This document shows, piece by piece, positions 6,817-54,376 of a DNA stretch of 64,000 nucleotides; position 1 is the first letter of the stretch; every line of letters begins with the position of its first letter. Source of the DNA: a virus; IMG/VR virus record IMGVR_UViG_3300015171_000002, positions 44,529-108,528 of that record. One strand, 5' to 3'. The notes beneath the pieces were generated by a model, which saw only the letters and a program-made list of their open reading frames with translations, ran no database searches and was not told the origin of the DNA. Position numbers and translations under genes: made by a program.

Positions 6817-7607
6817 CCTATCAGATAATCTAGAATATTCTGAAAATGTATCTAATCATACCAAAATTAGCGGTTATCGTTTTCTCGAAAATAAACGAGG
6901 TTTGTCTACCAGCTTGTCAACGATAGACTATCTTAACTAATCAAAGTGGAAGGATAAACTTTAGATTTTTTATAAGGAATAATATGTTACCAGAACGAAA
7001 ATTAAATGCTCAACAGAACGCTATACTACAACTTTCTGCAATTATAGCAGCCGTACATTTCGAGACAAATGATGCAGTTACTAAACAGTTTATTACTATG
7101 ATGGCTAGTCAAGTAGCGGCAGAATATCAACAGGATAGCCAAGACCCATTAGCTCCATCTTTATTTTTGCCGGTTAAACTAACTGAAGTTTTTAGGGATG
7201 CAATGGCTAAGATGCGAACAGGTTATGAACTTGATTTAAAATCTCAAAAACTGGTGCATACCATATCTAAAAATGGCAAAGGAAAAAATGACTAGACGTT
7301 GTAGTAAATGTGGTTTTGAGTGGGATGGTAAAGATACAGAATGTTATAATTGTGAATCAGAAGAAACTTATATCCTACCAGACAGTATTGATTTAGAAGT
7401 TTCATTCGGTAATATAAAAGATAATAAAATTTTAACTAAGAATTTATTAACTGGTGATAGTTTAAAACGTAAACTAAAAGAAAGAAAATGATATTCTCAA
7501 TTTGTTTTATTTTATTAGGTTGGTTATTTGTTGGTTCTTATAAAATAATGATGGGAATATTAGAGGGAATATTATTTGCAGGTTTATTTGTTTTGAATAG
7601 AATATTC

Positions 7608-43200: not shown

Positions 43201-44521
43201 GGATTTATTGTACTAAAATAACCGTCATCGTGCGGCGTTGGTCTGGTCAAGGAAATAATTTTATTATATTCAATACTGGTTTCACGTGAAACATTCTAAA
43301 TGTATTTTAACACTTGTCACAAACCGATACCATTAAAAATAAATAAAAATTTCTCAATATGGGGGAATATAATAAATTAAACAATCCTGGATAGATTATT
43401 TCAGTAGATTATTTTTAAATCAAATCGTATTGGGCAGTTATGGGGGATATAAGGATTAGAGATGTCAAAGCATAGCAAGAATAATAAAACAGAAGATTTC
43501 CAGACAGGTTATACCAAAGCTGAATGGTATGGACAATCACGCAAACAACGTACTAAAAAGCGTGGCAGTAAAAAGAATTTATATAAGAAAAATCAGCCGG
43601 ATTCGAACGCTATAAACGAGCGGGATAGTTTACACCAAAGCGACAAAATAAACACGTGGCGGCCACTTTCTGAGCGTTTAGACGGCAGCATAGACGACAA
43701 TCGGGAAAATAAACCCCATTAATGCCGCTCAATTCGTTAACATAGGACATAACATACTACTAATCATTGTTATTATCTATATTTTTCTAGTATTATGGAA
43801 TACTGCGGCAGCGGTAAAAAATTAGGAAATAAAATAATTCGCGGCTAGCATCTGGGGTTGTCAAAATTAAATCTAATCGGAAAAGGTAAATTGAAACAAA
43901 ACGATTTGTAATTCTAAAACTAAAAAACTTGAGTCTGAGTCCTATATTAGTTAATATAGGATTTTTTTATTTTCTATTTTAATAATTCTAGTCGCGGCTG
44001 TGTTGACATAATCCAGGTATTGACATAATACTATTGCTTTCGTGTATTTATTCACAACCCGCGCTTTCGTGCTTATTATCACAACACAATTTTTCTGGTT
44101 AGAATTTTGACGAAATGCCGGAAAACGAGCCGGTTTTTTTCGTTTGAAAAACTTTATGTCAACCATGATTCCAGCGTAACATGACGGGCAGCAGGAGTCA
44201 AGGTTGTGATTATTTTCACGATGGCGCATAACTTTACAATTAGAAATTTTATTATTTGCCTTAGTGTAAATAAGCACAAACCTTATTTACAGTTATGTCA
44301 ACTACCATTATCTGCTTTCGTGAAAATAAGAACAAATAGAACATTTGTTCTACTCAGATAGGTTGTGAATAATGGCACGAAAGAAAATATAAAACTAAAA
44401 AATTCTAACCAAACTCTAACCAGATTCAAACAAGAAAGTATTGACAAGTTTTTTTGTTTGGTTTATAGTATTTGAAGTTGAGCGGGCAAATCGGCCCATT
44501 AGAATGCAAAGGATAAATAAA

Positions 44522-45544
44522 ATGTCTCTCAAAGCTAAGGGAAATGCGGTTAAAGTAACAGGTTTAGGATTTGGTAAGCAGAAAGATATGGCGTCTCAGA
44601 ATTTTATCGGAGGCGAGCGTTGGATGCAACATATTGAAAGAGGTACACTTAAGATTAATCCCGAATTGGCTACGATGTCATTAGATGATATCCTAACCAG
44701 TGGTGGCCTAAATTTTGGTGTACTTAAATCTCAAACATTTTATAAATCCGCTGTTTCTGGATTAGAAATTCCTAGCCGGGGTTATTCTGTTTATCGGACT
44801 GATACTGATGTAGAATTGGGACATGGATTTAGTGATGGTTATCAGCCTATTTCCTATCCCGATATTCTTTCTCAGTTCTTTCAAAATGCTTTGGATTTGG
44901 GTAATATCCCGACTCGTGCAATTAGTTTTGATAATGGGGCCAAAGGTGCCATTCAGTTTGCAATGCCGCAGGAATATCTAATTGCGGATCGACCACATAA
45001 GACATTTTTGAATTTTTATTCCAGCCATGATGGTACTTATGGCGTTACCATGAATGAATGTGATATTTGTATTCTTTGTGGTAATACCTTTGCTTATTCT
45101 TTCCGCGATACAAGTGCAAAGTGGACGGTAAAGCATACCGTAAATATGCAATCTAAGATTAATGATATTCGGGAAAAGATTCTTATTAGTACGGAATCTC
45201 AACAAGGATATTATTTCAATCTGGATAAGATGGCAGCCAAGAAGGTTAGTTTTCAGGATAAGAATAATTTCCTGATGGCTATGTTTCCAGATGGCGATAT
45301 CAAAGAAAGTGGTAAAGTAAATCAAGGCCCGGCTAATCAGCGTATTCAATTAGATGATGCAATTAGTACCACGGTTAATGAGCGGAATAGCGCCGATACT
45401 ACATTTTATGATCTATTGCAGGGTGCATTTCGCCAGCAAAGTTATAAGACTCAAAATCGTGGCGGTGATGCTCAATTCGGTTATGTGATGAAGTCAATAG
45501 TAAATCAAAACGCTTATGATTACGTCACGGAGGCTATGAAATAA
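44522..45544 (+). CDS. DUF932 (TIGR03299-like) phage protein
   Basis: YRTDT..ELG....YQP, SHDG, CGN and HT motifs; SD before ATG at 44522. Confidence 0.75.
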   Translation: MSLKAKGNAVKVTGLGFGKQKDMASQNFIGGERWMQHIERGTLKINPELATMSLDDILTSGGLNFGVLKSQTFYKSAVSGLEIPSRGYSVYRTDTDVELGHGFSDGYQPISYPDILSQFFQNALDLGNIPTRAISFDNGAKGAIQFAMPQEYLIADRPHKTFLNFYSSHDGTYGVTMNECDICILCGNTFAYSFRDTSAKWTVKHTVNMQSKINDIREKILISTESQQGYYFNLDKMAAKKVSFQDKNNFLMAMFPDGDIKESGKVNQGPANQRIQLDDAISTTVNERNSADTTFYDLLQGAFRQQSYKTQNRGGDAQFGYVMKSIVNQNAYDYVTEAMK

Positions 45545-45572
45545 TCTAGAATAAAAACAGATTTAAAATAAA

Positions 45573-45603
45573 ACCTGGATTAGAAATAGTCCAGGTTTTT
45601 TTA
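45573..45603 (+). terminator. Intrinsic terminator
   Basis: AAAACCTGGA/TCCAGGTTTT followed by a T-run. Confidence 0.8.
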
Positions 45604-46839
45604 TTTAATTATTTTTATTATGTGGTTTAGTGAAATTAGTCACAATGGCTCAACGCTGATTTTATTATTTGCTTTTGTACCAGTATTCACAATACCACTT
45701 GACATAACGAGGTTAGAATTTTCATACAGCTTTCTAACTTGACACTGTATAAAATCCGACTATAATAAAAACATGGGCGGCAGAAAATAAGACTAGTTTT
45801 GGAGAATAAAAGATGACATTTGACGAAGCTAAAACATTGAAAATTGGGGATATTTTCCACGTTCTAGGCGAGAATAAGCGCGATGGTAAACCGCAGAATT
45901 GGCGCGTAACTGGTAAAACGAAATTGTGGAAAACTAATCCAAATAGAATTAAAATTCCATGTGCGCATGGAATGTATGAGCATGGCTATATCGAAACTGA
46001 TAATCTTCATTTAGTTTATTTGCCAAAAGGAAAATAACATGCCAGAAGAAATTGGAATGCCAATGGTAAAGAATCATTTCAATCATGTTCTTACACCAGA
46101 ACAAGAAGAATTGATTTGTTTTCTTGTGAATTGTGAAATGGAATTGTGGGAGAGTCATGCTGATATTCCCACTAATTATCTCAAGCGGCTGGAAGCTATC
46201 AAAGCTGAAATGCAAAATCATTCCAATATGCTTTATCGTAGCCTTTAAAGGATAATAAAATGAAAAGTGAAATAATCCATTACGGTATGTGGCAAATTCC
46301 AGTAAAGGCAATAAATGTTTACTGCCCCGATGGTATTTATCGGACTTGTAGAATTACTGGCGAAGCTGATACCTTTTTTACTTTACCGGCACAATGTCAG
46401 GTTAGGGGTAAAACGGTAACTGGATTTATTTCTAATCGATATGATGCTCCTGAGGGTGAAATGTATTTTTGGGGATTTGGTCGAAATATGGCTGCTTTCT
46501 TTCCAGATTTTGATAAAGCCTATGATTTTATTAGTAATGAAATTGCCACAGATAGCAGAATCGATGATTATGAGTTACGCGATATTTTCAAGGGTAAGTG
46601 GATTATTACTTTCAAACGTAATCAAAAAGATTGGACTGGACAGGATTATGAAATTCATGGGCATAAATATCCTGATAATACCAGTCATGGACGCTAAAGG
46701 ATAATAAAATGTTGGATATAAATGTTTTCCTTATCATTGTATTAACTTTTAGTTTAGGATTTATTTTAGGGCGACTGACTGGAAATTCTAACCAAAATCT
46801 AACTTGACAATTGGGCGTAGTAGCGGTACAATGTTTTCA

Positions 46840-47081
46840 AGGTTAGGGATTAATTGAACGCGACGGTTTCTGAAATGAAAAACAGAGTAAGCGACCAATG
46901 GACGATTTTAATTCCTAGCCTAAAATTCCAGTCGCCACAATAGGTTCAAATATCGGATGAAGAGTAGGGCGAGATTATCCGAACTGGAATAATAAAATAA
47001 AGTGGGCGGTGCTTTATAAATAAATAAGCGTCCACAAATAAAATAACCCCCAAATTATATCATAGGGGGTTATTTTATTTA
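46840..47081 (+). ncRNA. Noncoding transcription unit with its own promoter and intrinsic terminator
   Basis: TTGACA(46804)-17-TACAAT; 14-bp closing helix; pseudoknot module; terminator AAATAAAATAACCCCC/GGGGGTTATTTTATTT; no ORF. Confidence 0.6.
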
Positions 47082-47145
47082 TAACTCGATAGTTTGTCGA
47101 TAGATTATTTTTAAACAGAATAATAGGGGATGGTATAGGGGGGGA

Positions 47146-47233
47146 TTCTAACCACCTAAACACGATTAGCTAGTTAGTATCAATTCTAACCACCTAAACA
47201 CGATTTGACAGTAACAAAATTTTGTGGTATAAT
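47146..47233 (+). promoter_or_regulatory. Consensus promoter preceded by a duplicated 22-bp element
   Basis: TTCTAACCACCTAAACACGATT twice, then TTGACA-17-TATAAT with TGTGG. Confidence 0.75.
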
Positions 47234-47642
47234 TGCCGCTGTCCTACCGCTCTGGTACGGGAAATAAATTATTAGATTATTAGTTTTAGAAAAGAAAAAA
47301 TAATCTAATAAAATTTCGCTGAAAGCGAACGCGATAGCGTGGTTTTAGGGGTTACTTTTGCTACTTTTATTTGTCTTATGGGGGAAAAGAAAAAAAGAAA
47401 TTTGAGGCACGTCATGGCCCGTATAGGATGATAAAATCGACAAGCCGCGAAGCTGGCTTAAAGATTGGAGATTTAATAAAATGAAAAATTATAAAAGTAG
47501 AGATAAAAAATTGAATAAGAAAAAGAATGGGATGAGAATAAGTGGAAAGAGTTTATTTTTGCTTAATTATTTGACTCAGAAAAAAGCGGAAAAAATAAAG
47601 CAGGAAAATAAAAAAACTTGAGTCCTGATTTGAGTCCTAAAA

Positions 47643-47676
47643 ACAATATACATATATAATTATATATGTATATTGT
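47643..47676. repeat. Perfect 34-bp AT-rich palindrome
   Basis: ACAATATACATATATAA|TTATATATGTATATTGT. Confidence 0.9.
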
Positions 47677-48236
47677 CTTATTTTGCGCCTAGCACTATTG
47701 TTCTATAGAACAAGTGTTCTATTGACATAACATTATTGCTTTCGTGCATATATTCACAATCGGTAATTCGCCGGGTGAATATTATGTAAACTTGGGGGAG
47801 ATATGCTCGCCGCATGGCAATATGATAAATCTCTATCCTATGCGGAGTCAATAGTACTTAAGTACCGTTCATTTGTTCTATATGTGATAACTTTCACGAA
47901 AACAAATATCTGAAATTTCAATGATTTAAATTATCTACTTTCGTGAAATTAGCCACAAAGCAGTATTATGTCAACCCTGCCCATAGAGGAGATTTTCTAA
48001 TGTATTTATTTTCGTGCTTTTATTCACAAACAAAAAAATTCTTGAATTGTGAATAAAAGAACTAAAGTATCTAATCCCATAATGCAGCCCCGAATAAGTG
48101 ACAAATAGCACTAAAGTATAGAAAATAGGCGTGAAAATTCTAACCAAACTCTAACCAGATTGGGTATTGACTCCTATCTCGAATTGACTATAATAAGCAC
48201 ATACCGGCGAAAGACTAGCGCAAAGGAAAAGTTGAA

Positions 48237-48491
48237 ATGCCCGAAATGACCACAGCACAGTTGAAGCAGCGTATCGCAGAGATGGAAGCCGCTGAAGCCG
48301 CCCGCAAAGAGGCGAACAATAAAATCAGTTTTAAAATTGGTGACAAAGGAGGTCTTTCGGTGTATCATGGAAGCCGTTTTCCGACTACACTGTATTACTC
48401 GCAATGGCTGAAGGTGTTGACTCACGCCGATGAGATTCTTACCTATCTTGAGGCGCATAAAGCACAATTGGCACACAAGGAAAATGAATAA
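48237..48491 (+). CDS. Small conserved phage protein (early gene)
   Basis: ISFKIGDKGGLSVY..RFPTTLY..QW; own sigma70 promoter and SD. Confidence 0.7.
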   Translation: MPEMTTAQLKQRIAEMEAAEAARKEANNKISFKIGDKGGLSVYHGSRFPTTLYYSQWLKVLTHADEILTYLEAHKAQLAHKENE

Positions 48492-48579
48492 AATTCAAAC
48501 CAGACTCTAACTTGACTCCGCATAGTAAAGCAGTATAATCAAAACATGGCCGCGCAGGACTAGAGAAAAGGAAAATAAA

Positions 48580-48996
48580 ATGCCCAAGAATACGAAGTTG
48601 GCGAAGGATACCGAAATTTTTGATGCTGCCGCGAAAGCTCAGGGTATGGCCCATGTTGCGGAATTGAACGCTGCCGTTGACGCCGCGCCCGAAGCCGTGA
48701 AGCGTGGTCGGAAGCCCTCCAACAAACTGACGTTCGCGAAGTTTGTTGCCGCTGTAAAATCCGGCGAAATGTTGCCCGGTATGATTGTGACCGAAGAGAA
48801 GCGTGAGGGCAATCGGATTATCTCATTTGCCGGTGTCAAGGCCGAGAATCCGGTTATCGGCCTGGACGAAGAGGGCAATCTGACTCTGTCCGAATTGACC
48901 ACGGACAATAGCACGTGGAAGCGAACGCCAATTGAGAAGGTTGTCAAGACCGTCAGCGCGGCTGAGGTTATGGCGCTTTTGAATAGCGCGGAATAG
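48580..48996 (+). CDS. Early protein with a KRGRKP AT-hook-like motif
   Basis: Own promoter, SD and terminator; higher GC than the rest of the window. Confidence 0.65.
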   Translation: MPKNTKLAKDTEIFDAAAKAQGMAHVAELNAAVDAAPEAVKRGRKPSNKLTFAKFVAAVKSGEMLPGMIVTEEKREGNRIISFAGVKAENPVIGLDEEGNLTLSELTTDNSTWKRTPIEKVVKTVSAAEVMALLNSAE

Positions 48997-49039
48997 AATA
49001 CCTCTCCCGCCCATAATGGCGTAAAAGCCTACATAATCC

Positions 49040-49084
49040 GAAAATTCCAGACATAGAAAATATGTTCTGGAATTTTCGTTTTTG
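49040..49084 (+). terminator. Intrinsic terminator
   Basis: GAAAATTCCAGA/TCTGGAATTTTC followed by a T-run. Confidence 0.75.
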
Positions 49085-50269
49085 CCGTCAGTTTTTATTA
49101 TACGCTTTAGTGCATTTATTCACAATCAAACCCGTCTGCCATATTATATGCTTTCGTGTTATTTATCACAATCGCTAATTATCCGCTTTCGTAAATTTAA
49201 TCACTAATGATATTATGTCAACCCTGCCCATAGAGGAGATTTTATTATTTCTTTTCTTTCGTCCAAATAATCACAATCAGAAAATTCTAGACGTTTTCTA
49301 ACCAGACTCTAACTTGACAATGCCGGTACTAATGGACTATACTTGATTATATTCTAGTCTAGTATAAGGAAAATAAAATGACCGGAAATGAAGTTTGGAA
49401 TAAGCTAGCCGAACAAGGCGCAACAAGCATAAATGTTTCTGATAATGGCGATGTCTATGCTACCAAACCAGCAAGTATTCTAACTGGTTATACAGCTTTC
49501 AAATGGGCCATAAAAACGGGCGAAAACCAGTATCGATTTTTCTGTGATTTATGGGTACTGACAGATAATAAAAACATAGCCTAAAACGGCTCTAGGACGG
49601 TCTAGGATAGATGGGAAATGATAAAACGTATATTATCACCCCATTTTTATTCTAGACCGTCCTAGACGGTTTTTAATTATTTTGTTGATTATTGTCATCG
49701 AAATTGTGGCTATTTTCACGATAATAAATATTAATAAAAACGTCGAATATAATTCTGCGCTTTCGTGAAAGTAAGAATAATCATAACCTGTGAATAACTA
49801 CACGAAACTATAGAATACTGGAATAAAACTCTAACCAGATTATAACCAAACTGGGCTTGACTCAATTTCCAGAATAGGATATTATCTTGTCTATAGGCAA
49901 ATGAAATTCTAGCGAAAAGGAAAACGAAATGGCTATCAATTTGAACGTTACTCCGGCTGAAATTGAAGGCGAAGATTATGCGAATGGCAATTCGAATCGC
50001 GCCGTTCGTGTTTTGAATATCGTCAAAGTGATTGATGCCTTGGGTATCGATATGGGCTATGTTAGGTTTGATCTGGGCAATGGACACAATACGTATAGCG
50101 TTGAGTCTACCATCATGTTAGACTGGGCCAAATTGAATAACTGCGATTATTATGCCGCCAGTCGCGAAGATTTTAACATTTGGGAAGCCGTTAGCAATGC
50201 GCGGCAGGGTTTTTATGATGCCGTGATTGTCGAGGATCTGTCATAGAAGAAAATTACGCAAGCAGCAAC

Positions 50270-50311
50270 AAATACCAGAACAAAAAAATTTGTTCTGGTA
50301 TTTTTTTATTT
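50270..50311 (+). terminator. Intrinsic terminator
   Basis: AAATACCAGAAC/GTTCTGGTATTT followed by a T-run. Confidence 0.8.
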
Positions 50312-50760
50312 GTCTGCATTGCATTGTGATTAAACGTACTAAACCAGATATAAAATTATTAAAATAATTGAATTATACGCTTTAGTGTAATTAGTCACAA
50401 TAAAACAAATGTTCTATATAGAATAAATGTTCTAATTCTAAGCGATCCACGCGAAAAACTCAAAATAAAAAACGTCTGCTAACACGGTTTAGCAAGCCCT
50501 ACAATCGTTCTTCTTTTTTACCAATACATTGATACCCATTTTTCTGTAGCGTTGACTGGCGGTGCCTTTTTACGCGATGTTATTGTAAAGTAAATTAATC
50601 AGTTTAGAACAAACATTCTACCAATTTATTTTATTCCACGCTTTTGTGCATATATTCACAAATGATTGTGCATAAAAGTACAAAAGTAAATAAATAATCA
50701 GTTAAAACTATAACCAGAATCTAACTTGACAATGAAATGAAAATAGAATAATATATAACT

Positions 50761-51027
50761 ATGAACGCAAAAAAGAGCGCCTCAAACAAAACTTATCGGA
50801 ATGGCTTACGTGAATTATGCCTAGAAATTTTAGGCCACAAATGCAATAATTGTGGCGAAACCCGTTCAGAATTTTTAGATTTTCATCATACCAACCCTTG
50901 CAATAAAGTTGCTAGTATCGCTAAACTGATTAGAACTAATCCGGCATTATTGGTGACAGAGATTCAGAAGTGTGTGCTACTCTGCAAGAATTGTCATAAA
51001 GCAGAACACTATGGGAAGAAAATCTAA
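50761..51027 (+). CDS. Small HNH endonuclease
   Basis: CNNCG...LDFHH...KC.LLCKNCH...H. Confidence 0.85.
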   Translation: MNAKKSASNKTYRNGLRELCLEILGHKCNNCGETRSEFLDFHHTNPCNKVASIAKLIRTNPALLVTEIQKCVLLCKNCHKAEHYGKKI

Positions 51028-51578
51028 CCAGACTCTAACTTGACAATACCGCAAAAATAAAGTATCATGTTTATATAGGGTTGGATGACAGAAGAAGAGA
51101 AAATAAAATATGCTCGCCCAACCTATAAAATAAATATGCACTGGTATAGGGGATTGTTAGATATTCCGGTGTCCAGAACTATCGGATGTGAGGGCGTAGG
51201 TTATAATTAGGATAATGCCTAATTAGCCGACAATTCCGAGCCGGAAAAACAAATGTTCTAGCCCACCACATTATTGTGGGATGACGACTAGAACATTTGT
51301 TTTATTTTTTATTTGTGAATAAAATAACTAAAACAAATAAATAGAATAATTATTATGCGCTTTCGTGAATATATTCACAAACAGAATACAATAGGATATT
51401 GTGAATAACTACACAAAAGCAAATATCGGTAGATTACATAATTCTCGATAGGTCAGAAATGGTTAGGATGGGGATAGGATTTCAATAGGGGGTAGGTAAA
51501 TTCTAACCAAACTATAACTTGACTATTTAGAATAAATCGACTAATATATAACTACATCGGCGATACAGGAGAAATGAA

Positions 51579-51875
51579 ATGGATACCACTTATCTTCAGC
51601 AATGGAACGGCGAACACTACATTCGGCAAGTTGTTTATCTGGATTCTCAGTTTGATATCACGAAGCCGGTTTTGTTCGTGGTCGATAAATCCTATAATTG
51701 GGACAATTTCAAAACGGATTATCGCCCCAACGAAATTTTCACGGATGCCGAACAAGCGAAACGGCTGATTACTTTCGAGTACCAGACGCGGAAAATTGAG
51801 GCTATCAAGCTTGTTCGAAAGCTGACCGGATGGGGATTGAAGGAATCGAAAGATTTTGTGGATTCCAATTGCTAG
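51579..51875 (+). CDS. Protein with a ribosomal L7/L12 C-terminal-like domain
   Basis: RKIEAIKLVRKLTGWGLKESKDFVD closely matches the bL12 CTD signature. Confidence 0.8.
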   Translation: MDTTYLQQWNGEHYIRQVVYLDSQFDITKPVLFVVDKSYNWDNFKTDYRPNEIFTDAEQAKRLITFEYQTRKIEAIKLVRKLTGWGLKESKDFVDSNC

Positions 51876-54376
51876 AATAAAGAAATAGGGCATTTCTGCC
51901 CTATTTCTATTTAAGCTGAAATTATTATTTGTTTTAGTAAATATAATCACAATATCTGAGTCCTGAGTCCGAATCTGAGTCCTGAGTCGAGTCTATATAA
52001 TATAATACAATTTCCAATTAGAATAAAAATTCTATTAGAATGGATGTTCTATAGCACATCTGTTCTAGTACCGGCCCTGACCCTCCATTATACCATTAAA
52101 CATGATTAGTTGTCAATGGGTTTTGGTTAGATTCTTCTAACTTTAAGGTTAGAGTTTTCTAACCAGAATCTATTGACAAAACGGTTTTTTAAGGATTGTA
52201 AAATTTTGCGCCTGCCAGCCGCGCCGGGTGAAAGTTAGAAGATTCTAACTTGACAAATCAGATTATAACGCGACTCAAACCTAAAATATTTTACAATCCT
52301 TAAGTTTTGGAAATGTCAACAATTCTAACCAAACTCTCATAATTCAAGCCTGGGCTATTACGTGCTTTCGTGAAATTAGTCACAATACAGATGTCGAGCC
52401 TACTCCTGCCTTTACATAATGCTAATCCACTTAAAAGTAATTAGATGCCTAACAAATACGCATGTTCTATACTGGTATGATGCCTTGTACTATTTTCACG
52501 AAGCCGAATAACCTTGTTTTATAGGCTATTTTTGCCCTATTGCGCGGCATTCTAGAATGCCTTATATTGTTGCTATGGGACAGAACAACCCAACGAAGGA
52601 CAGAGACATACGCGGCGCGATGTTTTCTGACAAAAAATCCGGCCTTTTCTCCCATTTTTCGGCCCATAGACTCGGCGTTCTATCAAAACGCTAATTTGGC
52701 CCGTGGCCGACCCGATAATGGCGTTGGAAATTGACCCGATTTTTTGATTTTAGGTTGTAATTTTCGGGCGTTATCTCTGCCCGTTATGGCGCAATTCCAC
52801 TATAACGAAATGAGGATATTGTGAACGAATCAATTTGGAAATTAGCAGACGGGTTTAATCATGGGATGGAAATTGAGTATCAAGAGGGCGCAATAGCATA
52901 TGAGTCAACGGATGACGGAATTGTGCTTGACACACGGCGCGCATCTCTCAATAGGGCGCACAAAAACGGCAATCAGCGTTTTTTCTCTGAATTCTGGCAA
53001 TCACGCGGAATTCAGATAGAGGATATATGCGCCTTACAATTTTGTCGGTTTTTGGTGGGGGGCGAAATTGAAGTTTGTGGGCGTGATATTTTCTTGCGAA
53101 AATATGAAATTGACCCGGCGACTATCTGGGCGTTGGTTGCCAATAGTCGCAATTCTGATTATTTTGTGGTCGCAGAGTCAGATTGTGGCAAGTTGACGTG
53201 TTGGAAAACTGAAACGGGCAAACGCACTAATGGAGGCCACGCAAAGCGGAAAGTAACAGAAGCAAAGAAGTATAAGCGGAATCGCCGCCCGCTGTATTAG
53301 GTTATAGACTGTTAGCAGACAGAATTGATTAATCTCAATTCTGTCTGCAATAGAGTCTAAAACTTGAGACTCTCACCTATCGTAAAGGAAAATTGAAATG
53401 TCAGATGTGAAGCCTACCATGCTAGAAGTAGCAAAATTCAGCGCCATAAAAAACGCTGAATCGAACGCACGTAACATGCTAGCCAATATGGCTGAATTGT
53501 TGGATTGTCCACTATCCGATAGTGACAAGGAAGCCGTAAAGGAATTACGCGCCTTGTTTTATCATCTAACTGATGCCGGATATCAGTTAGACAAGAAAAT
53601 CGGAATCAAGCATTAAACCGCGCCGCGCTATACCATTAGACTGTTGAAGGGATAATGACGAAATGACTCAGTTAATCGCAAGTCTCACCGTCAATGATTC
53701 AGTTAATACATTTTTGTTTTTGCGAGATTCTGAAGAGCTTCCAGAATTTCGAGTTTACATCGACCCCGATTTTGTTACGACAACACTTGTAATAAATACG
53801 GGCCATTTTTCGTTGAGGATATTTTCTCAATTTCGTGATTTAACCGCTCAGGGTGAATCGAAAATCAAACTCAAGGAAGATGATTGGTATAGTTTCTATG
53901 CGGTATATGACGAATTGATTATCATGGCACAAGGGCCACGAAGCCGCGCATGGTCTTTTGAGACTATGATAAACGAAATGAAGAAAATAGAATCAATCGA
54001 TCCCATATTTGAGACATTGAGGAAAATGATTCAATCATATGCGAAAGCGTATGATGTATGGGCGCATGATATGGGTGAAGAGATTAACCTATGGGAGTCA
54101 GAATATAAAGACTAGTAATATGTATAACAGTTTGATTGTGTTCTGTTGAAAAACACAATAGTTGTTATTCGCTGCTTCATCTATCTTAAAGGAAAAATAA
54201 AATGCTTGCAATGCTTCTGCTGGTACTGGCCGCAATTGTGATAATGATAATGGTATCATGCGCCATTATTAAGTTGTTTGTTACGCATGATAATAACGGG
54301 TTGGTTGGATACCATGATAACTATCGTGGTATTGTGACGTATACTCAAAACGGAAAGATGCGAAAATAACCTTAAC

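Follow-up and report, generated by a model that had tools for sequence, protein, structure and literature searches.

Known systems with host-read boxes

The SOS repressor LexA of Gram-positive bacteria reads the motif GAAC-N4-GTTC (PMC3323433), and the form GAAC-N4-GTTT has been used in clostridial LexA searches (PMC4234289). In the tectivirus GIL01 of Bacillus thuringiensis, host LexA acts at tandem dinBoxes, one of them only a half-site, together with the co-repressor gp7, while gp6 is a LexA-domain activator centred at -43.5 (PMC4551915, PMC6182141). The lytic Bacillus phages phi29 and Nf carry boxes for the host regulator Spo0A in their early regions and origins (PMC2731898).

The DNA analysed here is a window of 64,000 nucleotides from the 112-kb record (about 93% complete) of a large soil phage. 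An early-type block of the window contained ten copies of a 16-bp palindrome, the E box. Like the Gram-positive-type LexA operator (the Cheo or SOS box, including its clostridial GTTT form), the E box has the GAAC/GTTC core, N4 spacing, A/T-rich spacers, dyad symmetry and tandem pairs. It differs from that operator in its 16-bp length with TA flanks, in the single core mismatch of most copies, and in its place, as a candidate operator, in a phage early block and not before repair genes. We lean, with modest confidence, towards reading the boxes as operators of the host LexA, in a 16-bp form of the Gram-positive-type motif; as unrelated phages have comparable clusters, the phage probably reads or soaks up the SOS repressor of its host.

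The likeness to GIL01 extends to strong and weak boxes in tandem, to the proposed reliance on host LexA, and to a second palindrome class at a class II activator position, represented here by the GTAC box described below. GIL01, however, is temperate and has 2 + 2 boxes on its key promoters, whereas the present phage is of 112 kb and its ten boxes lie off the main promoters. Neither a gp6-like LexA-domain protein nor lysogeny genes were found in the record, and a partner such as gp7 was not recognisable from sequence. With phi29 and Nf the phage shares a lytic character and multiple sites for a host global regulator near early promoters (the former apparent and the latter putative here), which would couple development to host state. 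The signal would be DNA damage and not sporulation as with Spo0A, and the layout differs from that of phi29, where the Spo0A sites repress the main early promoters.

Repeat unit and enrichment

The window had three exact copies of GAAC-N4-GTTC (2177, 44339, and 47708). Sites with at most one mismatch numbered 26 against 14.4 expected, and 12 of the 26 were within 44.3-52.1 kb. The initial annotation had proposed LexA-type boxes in this region and had staked the proposal on their enrichment over background, which was borne out: the 9.1-kb block held 12 one-mismatch boxes, while 400 first-order Markov simulations gave 2.3 +/- 1.5 (maximum 7). The density was 1.32 per kb in the block versus 0.26 per kb across the other 103 kb of the phage. 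Among the 256 four-base/N4 palindromes, only GAAC-N4-GTTC was both enriched and numerous in the block. A GAAC-N4-GTTC-like box was present at every coordinate that the annotation had listed, with the exact form at 44339 and 47708 and one core mismatch at the rest, and the match that it had drawn to the LexA core of Firmicutes, Actinobacteria and Chloroflexi held, in that the Gram-positive-type core was present.

The full repeat unit was the 16-mer palindrome TAGAAC-N4-GTTCTA. Counting sites with one heptad perfect and at most two mismatches in the other, ten E boxes were found between 44337 and 52067 (0.02 expected by chance) and none in the remaining 103 kb of the 112-kb genome. The core was exact in two, GAAC-N4-GTTT in three, and carried some other single mismatch in five. 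Sites with the sequence of a LexA operator (GAAC-N4-GTTC or GAAC-N4-GTTT with an A/T-rich spacer) were therefore present, and the spacers of both exact sites in the block were A/T-rich. The mismatch classes fitted two independent halves under equal constraint, as is expected of a symmetric dimer. Two features of the unit count against LexA, namely the core mismatch in 8 of the 10 boxes and the outer TA flank, which was conserved as strongly as the core and which, to our knowledge, is no feature of the Bacillus LexA-box consensus.

Occurrence of the 16-mer in other phages

The perfect 16-mer was found in at least 119 IMG/VR loci. Its sites lay outside ORFs of at least 100 aa in 56% of cases versus 31% for a control palindrome matched in composition to the E box (Fisher p = 3e-4), and 20 loci had two or more sites of the 16-mer while none had two or more of the control. 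Random positions fell outside such ORFs in 15% of cases; the control palindrome was itself commoner there than random positions.

No protein detectably common with this phage was found in the loci carrying the 16-mer. In three of them (L088, L137, and L161) the E box stood in arrays together with the canonical TCGAAC-N4-GTTCGA. Arrays of 7 to 9 boxes were present in L118 and L089, which are phages of 58-61% GC, and in L078, L097, L118, and L089 arrays with a period of 19-21 bp and as many as nine boxes lay near terminase/portal genes. The phage G001 (190 kb, 94% complete) had nine boxes, all in a single 9-kb block, and neither a relative of this phage's TerL nor a LexA domain was detected in it.

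Position of the boxes in the early block

The early-type block (43723..52820, plus strand) contained about 13 small genes pointing rightward. Most of them are ORFans, and each has a strong promoter and a terminator to itself. The main early promoter pattern consisted of two TCTAACC words 11 bp apart followed by TTGACA. Every copy of the E box, of the B-type promoter-like element (B element) and of TTGACATAA was inside this block. The intervals that the initial annotation had called gene-free were without credible ORFs, and other motif families did cluster there with the boxes; its term "repeated multi-operator cassettes" is a fair description, but no cassette duplicates another, as the motifs recur and the flanks do not.

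The top-scoring site of the promoter scan, and the sole perfect consensus in the block, was a sigma-A-type promoter on the minus strand (52087..52116) with 12/12 matches, a TG extension and upstream TCTAACC words. Its predicted transcript crosses three E boxes and ends at a bidirectional terminator (51908-51881), and the leftward strand under it showed no credible ORF. These three boxes (52019..52067; E boxes, being palindromes, are given without strand) start at 52019, 52036, and 52052, 17 and 16 bp apart, and occupy about +13 to +61 of that promoter; the outer member at 52019 is degenerate (GAAT/ATTC). On the far side of the run lie an AT-rich stretch (51994-52018) and five GAGTC words (51958-51993).

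A single perfect E box (44337..44352; PWM 23.7 bits) was flanked by two back-to-back B elements. Each element lies downstream of it in its own direction: the leftward one, ending at 44335, has its -35-like hexamer 1 nt away, and the rightward one, at 44363, is 10 nt away. The early promoter of the DUF932 gene follows about 100 bp downstream. Two abutting boxes of 16 bases each (starts 47690 and 47706; 47690..47721), the first with a GCAC variant half and the second perfect, begin right after an AT-rich bidirectional terminator hairpin (47643-47681) and directly adjoin TTGACATAA at 47722. Two leftward elements precede them: the boxes occupy about +4 to +35 of a B element (47759-47732) and, counted from a GTAC-box promoter (47851-47822), about +94 to +125. 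Another pair (starts 50401 and 50419, 18 bp apart; 50401..50434), with AAAC and GAAT variant halves, overlaps the -10/start region of a weak leftward promoter-like site (50463-50435, 9/12 matches) and abuts the -35-like hexamer of a leftward B element ending at 50400. A single box with one perfect half and two mismatches in the other (50605..50620) lies at about +6 to +21 of a leftward B element (50661-50633).

The last two boxes, 51245-51260 and 51289-51304, form the 16-nt arms of one terminator hairpin on the plus strand (51245..51304). The arms are exactly complementary (-25.2 kcal/mol, z -5.8) and a T run follows; this was the only place where boxes formed an intrinsic terminator, that is, a stable stem-loop and T run that close a transcription unit. 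The hairpin terminates the short transcript of a promoter at 51040, and its right arm lies 8 nt upstream of a rightward B element at 51313. The two boxes are therefore not independent singles as the initial annotation had listed them, although its single at 50606 stood; likewise its tandem pairs at 47691/47707 and 50402/50420 were real, while 52037/52053 belonged to the run of three whose member at 52019 it had missed.

The strong terminator made by 51245 and 51289, together with GAACA/TGTTC stems in two more terminators of the block (50270-50303 and about 49040-49080), is what would be seen if the boxes were by-products of hairpin-forming sequence or local word usage with no dedicated binding protein, and the enrichment of the control palindrome outside ORFs (31% versus 15%) fits this as well. 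We regard this explanation as highly improbable. The other eight E boxes fold weakly as RNA (-6 to -13 kcal/mol), a hairpin needs neither a fixed N4 spacing nor an invariant heptad, and word usage would have to account for ten sites in the block with none elsewhere in the genome and for an E box that lies outside long ORFs more often than the control.

Most E boxes coincided with leftward promoter-like elements or followed them closely. Their placement fits the promoter 52116-52087 and three weaker leftward sites, all of these being consensus matches. Several aspects of this placement count against LexA: the main early promoters, roughly ten in number, were all without an E box, the leftward promoters besides 52116-52087 are no more than matches to the consensus, and the position of the boxes varied between abutting a -35 hexamer, lying downstream of the start and forming a terminator stem (n=2).

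The surroundings of the arrays also recall replication origins. As in iteron origins of the ori-lambda type, short dyad-repeat arrays of two to three palindromes adjoin very AT-rich DNA (the AT-only palindrome 47643-47681; 51994-52018) and are crossed by transcription, in this case from non-coding leftward promoters that read into them, and the B elements contain a DnaA-box-like word. The arrays could accordingly be iterons of one or more phage origins, activated by leftward transcription through them as at ori-lambda or the T4 R-loop origins, or sites of another protein-DNA assembly such as packaging, for which the arrays of up to nine boxes near terminase/portal genes might speak. This is quite improbable in our judgement. 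Three separate arrays with scattered singles are unusual for an origin, in contrast to ori-lambda, and at a spacing of 16-18 bp adjacent sites face away from each other on the helix. Beside the arrays an initiator gene was not recognised, and a private initiator would leave unexplained both the same box in unrelated phages and its mixing with canonical LexA boxes.

The GTAC box and a possible phage-encoded regulator

A second palindrome of this phage, the GTAC box (TAGTAC-N4-GTACTA), was centred near -43.5/-44.5 at about 13 promoters. It has the same length, N4 spacing and TA flanks as the E box and differs from it by one base per half. In the one relative with a readable homologous block (L002), the E box upstream of the DUF932 gene was absent and the other motif families were retained, which counts against LexA.

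These observations bear on a rather unlikely alternative, in which a dimeric regulator encoded by the phage, or a host factor other than LexA, uses the boxes as its operators. Such a protein might be a small repressor or activator without a family match that times the B-type and the leftward promoters of the early block, maybe a relative of the protein that reads the GTAC boxes. The close similarity of the two boxes, the conserved TA flank and the loss of the E box in L002 agree with it. So does the activator-type position of the GTAC boxes, which is like that of GIL01 gp6, since several E boxes likewise abut a -35-like hexamer (44335, 50400, 47722, and 47882). Most early ORFs are ORFans and could conceal a small DNA-binding fold, but no DNA-binding family appeared among the domain matches listed for the phage. 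The regulator would also have to be reconciled with 16-mer arrays in many viral contigs, G001 included, that have no detectable protein in common with this phage, and with E boxes standing elsewhere in tandem with canonical CGAAC-type boxes. GTAC boxes showed no co-occurrence with the 16-mer in the IMG/VR loci; the presence of the one in unrelated loci and the absence of the other there argue that the E box behaves as a shared word read by the host and the GTAC box as a private one.

Gene content and host lead

The six frames of the 112-kb record gave no match to the LexA DNA-binding domain PF01726 at E <= 1, and PF01381 (HTH_3) and PF00717 (S24) were not found in the phage. A Pfam sweep of 144 small ORFs showed no HTH family among the best 25 of 51 matched families, and the early ORFs matched no DNA-binding family; this lack of a candidate among the phage's own proteins speaks for LexA. 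The record (about 93% complete) yielded neither an integrase or resolvase nor an S24 repressor, and the phage is apparently lytic. It is not obvious why a virulent phage should need to sense SOS, which weighs against LexA. So do the phage's genes for two DNA methylases and for glycosyltransferases, since its DNA may be modified.

The nearest Atlas clusters of the lysin were Chloroflexota. Hundreds of bacterial M23 peptidases shared 41-48% identity with its C-terminal 343 aa, and those bearing an organism name were all Anaerolineales or Chloroflexota. This agrees with the host clade hinted at by the initial annotation and gives a lead to a host in the Chloroflexota (Anaerolineales). No exact box was found in one replicon of that lineage, the megaplasmid of Thermomicrobium roseum (Thermomicrobia).

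Proposed role of the boxes

If LexA is the reader, its dimers would occupy the two perfect sites after infection and, less tightly, the variant sites in tandem. Bound LexA would silence leftward (antisense, non-coding) transcription while the rightward early genes run, as the location of most sites, at leftward promoter-like elements or a short way past them, suggests. A drop in LexA would then activate the leftward units. Damage to the host's DNA could cause such a drop, as could the RecA of the phage working on replication intermediates, or the dilution of LexA over many replicated phage copies, and the early region would thereby be tied to the SOS state of the cell. With about ten sites on each phage copy, the boxes could also titrate LexA, as a side effect or as the aim.

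Binding by LexA would mean that the early region of a large lytic phage is wired to the SOS repressor of a host from a phylum that has hardly been studied. Such wiring has so far been documented mainly for temperate elements, GIL01 among them; CTX-phi and coliphage 186 are further temperate elements wired to the host SOS repressor. The box block in an unrelated 190-kb phage and the dense arrays in others suggest that uncultivated phages make general use of LexA sites for sensing or titration, in a way not described to date. The boxes may also provide a practical marker of host clade for metagenomic phages, and they form a small set of fragments directly testable by gel shift.

A further, combined proposal, which we consider unlikely, is that unrelated large virulent phages of Chloroflexota-type hosts have each assembled a block of about ten operators as a decoy. 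Such a block would drain LexA during replication and switch on both the host SOS regulon and the LexA-gated antisense early promoters, so that the host repressor would serve as an early-to-middle timer. The examples to which this would apply are the present phage and G001, with denser arrays of 7-9 boxes seen in others.

Clustering and consensus of the E box

All ten copies of the E box, a 16-base palindrome (TAGAAC-N4-GTTCTA) matching the LexA-type core GAAC-N4-GTTC, were located in the early block of the phage genome (window positions, about 43.7-52.8 kb). The cluster of such boxes reported in the initial annotation was confirmed as real by counts, simulation and whole-genome comparison. The exact core occurred within the window at 2177, 44339 and 47708 only, and with one mismatch there were 26 matches in the window, 12 of them within 44.3-52.1 kb. 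Enrichment over background was evident, with 12 sites observed against 2.3 ± 1.5 simulated for the 9.1-kb block, and the box density in the block was five times that in the rest of the genome. Comparison of all four-base/N4 palindromes showed that GAAC-N4-GTTC was the sole one both numerous and enriched.

Alignment of the sites gave the longer unit TAGAAC-N4-GTTCTA, and a weight matrix made from them gave each of the ten distinct sites a score of at least 14.5 bits and the rest of the 112 kb 13.8 bits or less. Counted as mismatches per heptad (half-site), the block contained two sites of class (0,0), four of class (0,1) and four of class (0,2), with none of these classes found elsewhere. Ten such sites compare with 0.02 expected, and sites mismatched in both halves were at background level only. 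An asymmetric site, with an invariant right heptad and a degenerate left one, was ruled out because the mismatch distribution fits two independent halves, each about 60% perfect; among uneven tandem members, the weak half was on the left in five of five (chance about 1 in 16). Other lookalikes (CIRCE, ARG boxes, NrdR boxes and SinR sites) were dropped, as the invariant heptad does not fit them, and an identity as tRNA T-arm fragments was ruled out, there being no tRNA or Rfam match in 43-53 kb.

The E boxes comprised a single perfect box at 44337-44352, an abutting pair (16 + 16 bases) at 47690-47721, a pair with starts 18 bases apart at 50401 and 50419, a single box at 50605-50620, an inverted pair at 51245-51260 and 51289-51304, and a run of three at 52019, 52036 and 52052. 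The tandem first described at 52037/52053 was a true pair but an incomplete one, the member at 52019 having been overlooked, while the two sites described as singles at 51246 and 51290 were boxes but not singles, being the arms of one hairpin. These arms were exactly complementary over 16 bases and enclosed a small inner hairpin, followed by a T run (-25 kcal/mol), and the hairpin at 51245-51304 is predicted to terminate the short transcript that begins at the 51040 promoter. The remaining E boxes showed weak RNA folding. That the boxes are mere by-products of hairpins or word usage is highly improbable, an explanation that holds for 51245/51289 only.

Companion motifs in the early block

Co-occurrence of the boxes with other motifs in gene-free blocks was borne out, with four further families, all limited to this part of the genome. 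The idea of repeated cassettes stood as far as the motifs recur, but the blocks themselves are not duplicated, as their flanks are dissimilar.

The B element (the “Rex-like” motif of the initial annotation) is a 29-bp promoter-like element with about 30 copies in both orientations between 44037 and 52385, for example at 49097-49125, 50372-50400 and 51352-51380. The copies aligned as TTGTGA-N17-nATAAT with a conserved CACGAAAGCA in the spacer. About 19 were leftward and about 10 rightward, and they frequently formed back-to-back pairs about 100 bp 5' of each early promoter. The B element may represent a second class of promoter, or a composite operator instead. The second family, TTGACATAA, had nine copies in the 112-kb genome, all in or just past the early block, with eight within 44.0-49.2 kb (44003, 44020, 44154, 44293, 45699, 47722, 47966 and 49213). 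Runs of GAGTC, which is a GANTC site, preceded terminators in the gene-free blocks, and runs of two to five words lay beside terminators at transcription-unit ends at 43931-43941, 47620-47636 and 51958-51993. Comparable CTGAGA or CTCAGGAA runs adjoined the boxes of three other E-box phages (L078, L097 and L161).

The fourth family consisted of two TCTAACC words, 11 bp apart, immediately 5' of the -35 at about 10 strong early promoters, including those at 44404-44447, 46787-46809, 48139-48172, 49297-49319, 50709-50731, 51023-51045 and 51502-51524. The proximal word abutted the -35 TTGACA, and the two words occupied the positions of both UP-element subsites. This layout was kept 5' of the DUF932 gene in L002, a relative with a readable homologous block.

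A different palindrome, the GTAC box (TAGTAC-N4-GTACTA), ended 0-2 nt 5' of the -35 at about 13 promoters genome-wide, and was therefore centred near -43.5/-44.5. These promoters serve replication, RNA-repair and packaging genes, and examples of the box were found at 1843, 9312, 15801, 16851, 29818, 47854 and 58801. The half-site GTACTAT was preserved adjoining the -35 in the distant relatives L003 and L004. In its position, the GTAC box resembles a class II activator site, one that a phage-specific factor would read.

Recurrence of the E box in other phages

Whether the E box is a private or a shared word was tested by scanning IMG/VR for the perfect 16-mer, which was present in at least 119 loci. 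Among the matches listed, 70 of 125 E-box sites (56%) had no covering ORF of at least 100 aa. The share was 31% for a control palindrome of matched composition (97 loci; Fisher p = 3e-4) and 15% for randomly chosen positions. Among the matches listed, at least 20 loci had two or more E-box sites, and just one control locus had even one such site. No protein in common with this phage was found in the E-box loci among those matches.

Arrays in L088, L137 and L161 combined the E box with the canonical TCGAAC-N4-GTTCGA. The flanking TA bases had been counted against LexA, and this objection was dropped, as the same flanked box occurs in many unrelated phages, adjoining canonical boxes. In two phages of 58-61% GC (L118 and L089), 7-9 boxes were packed into 300-400 bp in the vicinity of terminase or portal genes; these TAGAAC-N4-GTTCTA-type arrays, at 6990-7300 and 1000-1300 respectively, were the densest observed, with a 19-21 bp period in part. 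The phage behind L067 (190 kb, 94% complete) had nine boxes, all inside one 9-kb block, and two of them were the identical variant to that at window position 47690. The same block had 11 copies of TTGACATAA, mostly directly after a G+C-rich hairpin, and TTGACATAA is a second motif common to the two phages. No detectable relative of the TerL of the present phage and no LexA domain were found in the L067 phage.

The GTAC box was not a companion of the E box in the IMG/VR E-box loci. Because the E box recurs in unrelated phages and the GTAC box does not accompany it, the E box shows the behaviour expected of a word that a host protein reads, and the GTAC box that of a signal private to the phage.

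Placement of the boxes and their probable reader

Promoters and terminators were pattern matches, and all promoters near boxes except 52116-52087 were predicted from consensus matches only. No E box was found on the main early promoters. The three boxes at 52019-52067 lay at about +13 to +61 of the leftward promoter 52116-52087, the sole 12-of-12 match in the block, from which a non-coding transcript of about 200 nt is predicted to end at a bidirectional terminator (51908-51881). The pair at 50401-50434 overlapped the -10/start region of a weak leftward promoter-like site (50463-50435) and abutted the -35-like hexamer of a leftward B element. The pair at 47690-47721 was at +4 to +35 of a leftward B element and also downstream of a leftward promoter carrying a GTAC box. 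Box 50605 was at +6 to +21 of another leftward B element, and box 44337 was flanked by two back-to-back B elements.

Occupancy of the boxes by host LexA is the leading reading and appears somewhat probable; LexA occupancy, the leftward transcripts and the consequences are all inferences. By box placement, LexA would chiefly keep leftward non-coding transcription of the early block switched off for as long as its level stays up; a fall could come about via DNA damage, the phage RecA, or dilution among the replicated copies of the genome. The boxes might also titrate LexA, as a side effect or as their purpose. That a phage uses host-repressor sites is an already known principle. In GIL01, host LexA acts at tandem boxes, including a half-site stabilised by gp7, and a LexA-domain activator is centred at -43.5 (PMC4551915, PMC6182141), a precedent for phage use of host LexA at tandem boxes. 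Phages phi29 and Nf have Spo0A boxes (PMC2731898), a precedent for host-regulator sites in the early region of a lytic phage. The point added here is a box layout common to unrelated large phages.

Several observations count against LexA: eight of the ten E boxes have a core mismatch, the geometry of boxes versus promoters is inconsistent, and L002 lacks the box 5' of the DUF932 gene but retains its B, TTGACATAA and TCTAACC motifs. The phage encodes Dam and one N6/N4 methylase, and its DNA may be modified, which would be a further point against LexA. A private phage regulator, perhaps related to the reader of the GTAC box, might read the boxes instead, which we consider doubtful. Domain searches showed no LexA DNA-binding domain, HTH_3, S24 peptidase or sigma region 2 in the phage, and no HTH family was among the top 25 of the 51 Pfam families matched in a sweep of 144 small ORFs. 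AT-rich DNA adjoins each tandem, as would suit origin iterons crossed by leftward transcription, an explanation rated as unlikely.

The lysin gives a lead to a candidate Chloroflexota (Anaerolineales) host. Its closest Atlas clusters were Chloroflexota; its C-terminal 343 residues shared 41-48% identity with bacterial M23 peptidases, which numbered in the hundreds and lay on contigs of up to 1.08 Mb, and the organism-named matches were all Anaerolineales or Chloroflexota. Scans of genome-collection contigs for the host gave no match, plasmid searches found no Chloroflexota SOS locus, and the exact E box was absent from one Chloroflexota-lineage (Thermomicrobia) replicon. Literature searches on LexA-box arrays in virulent phages or on a Chloroflexota SOS box found nothing relevant.

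Genome features and the early block

The virus record is linear (112,017 bp, about 93% complete, 32% GC), the window being its bases 44529-108528, and the plus strand holds nearly all genes. The genome encoded about 20 tRNAs, RecA, Ro60, Pnkp, two RNA ligases, a family B DNA polymerase, DnaB, primase, class II ribonucleotide reductase, ThyX, dUTPase, Cpn10 and a large terminase subunit with a best identity of at most 32% against the phage collection. The phage looks virulent, because no tyrosine recombinase, serine recombinase or S24 peptidase was found in the record. Phage records gave no megablast match, and neither protein comparison nor the DNA patterns of the TCTAACC promoter and the B element revealed an IMG/VR relative. 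Conservation was assessed on three short JGI contigs only; longer relatives were P0002 (DUF932 protein 83% identical, 11 kb) and P0006 (116 kb).

The early block contained about 13 small rightward genes, mostly ORFans, the others encoding a DUF932 protein, a small HNH protein and a protein with an L7/L12-C-like domain. Every gene had its own near-consensus promoter and its own terminator by pattern match. Early genes at 48237-48996, 49929-50246 and 52821-53300 had 44-54% GC, against 32% for the phage, and may be recent acquisitions or reflect host composition. Early genes of 46-54% GC, like the large tRNA set, would suit a host whose GC content is far above that of the phage.

The perfect leftward promoter was situated in a 250-bp ORF-free region (52087-52340) with large inverted repeats and additional TCTAAC-TTGACA words on both strands. 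This region may act as a hub of divergent control, or a non-coding RNA of about 200 nt, rich in GACUC repeats, may begin there. The C-terminal part of a 98-aa early protein (51579-51875) matched the ribosomal L7/L12 C-terminal domain (E = 7e-8). A 46-aa lysine-rich ORF (47481-47621) was kept in L003 (3113-3251) and L004 (2653-2799), where it follows the DUF932 gene and then a non-coding stretch.
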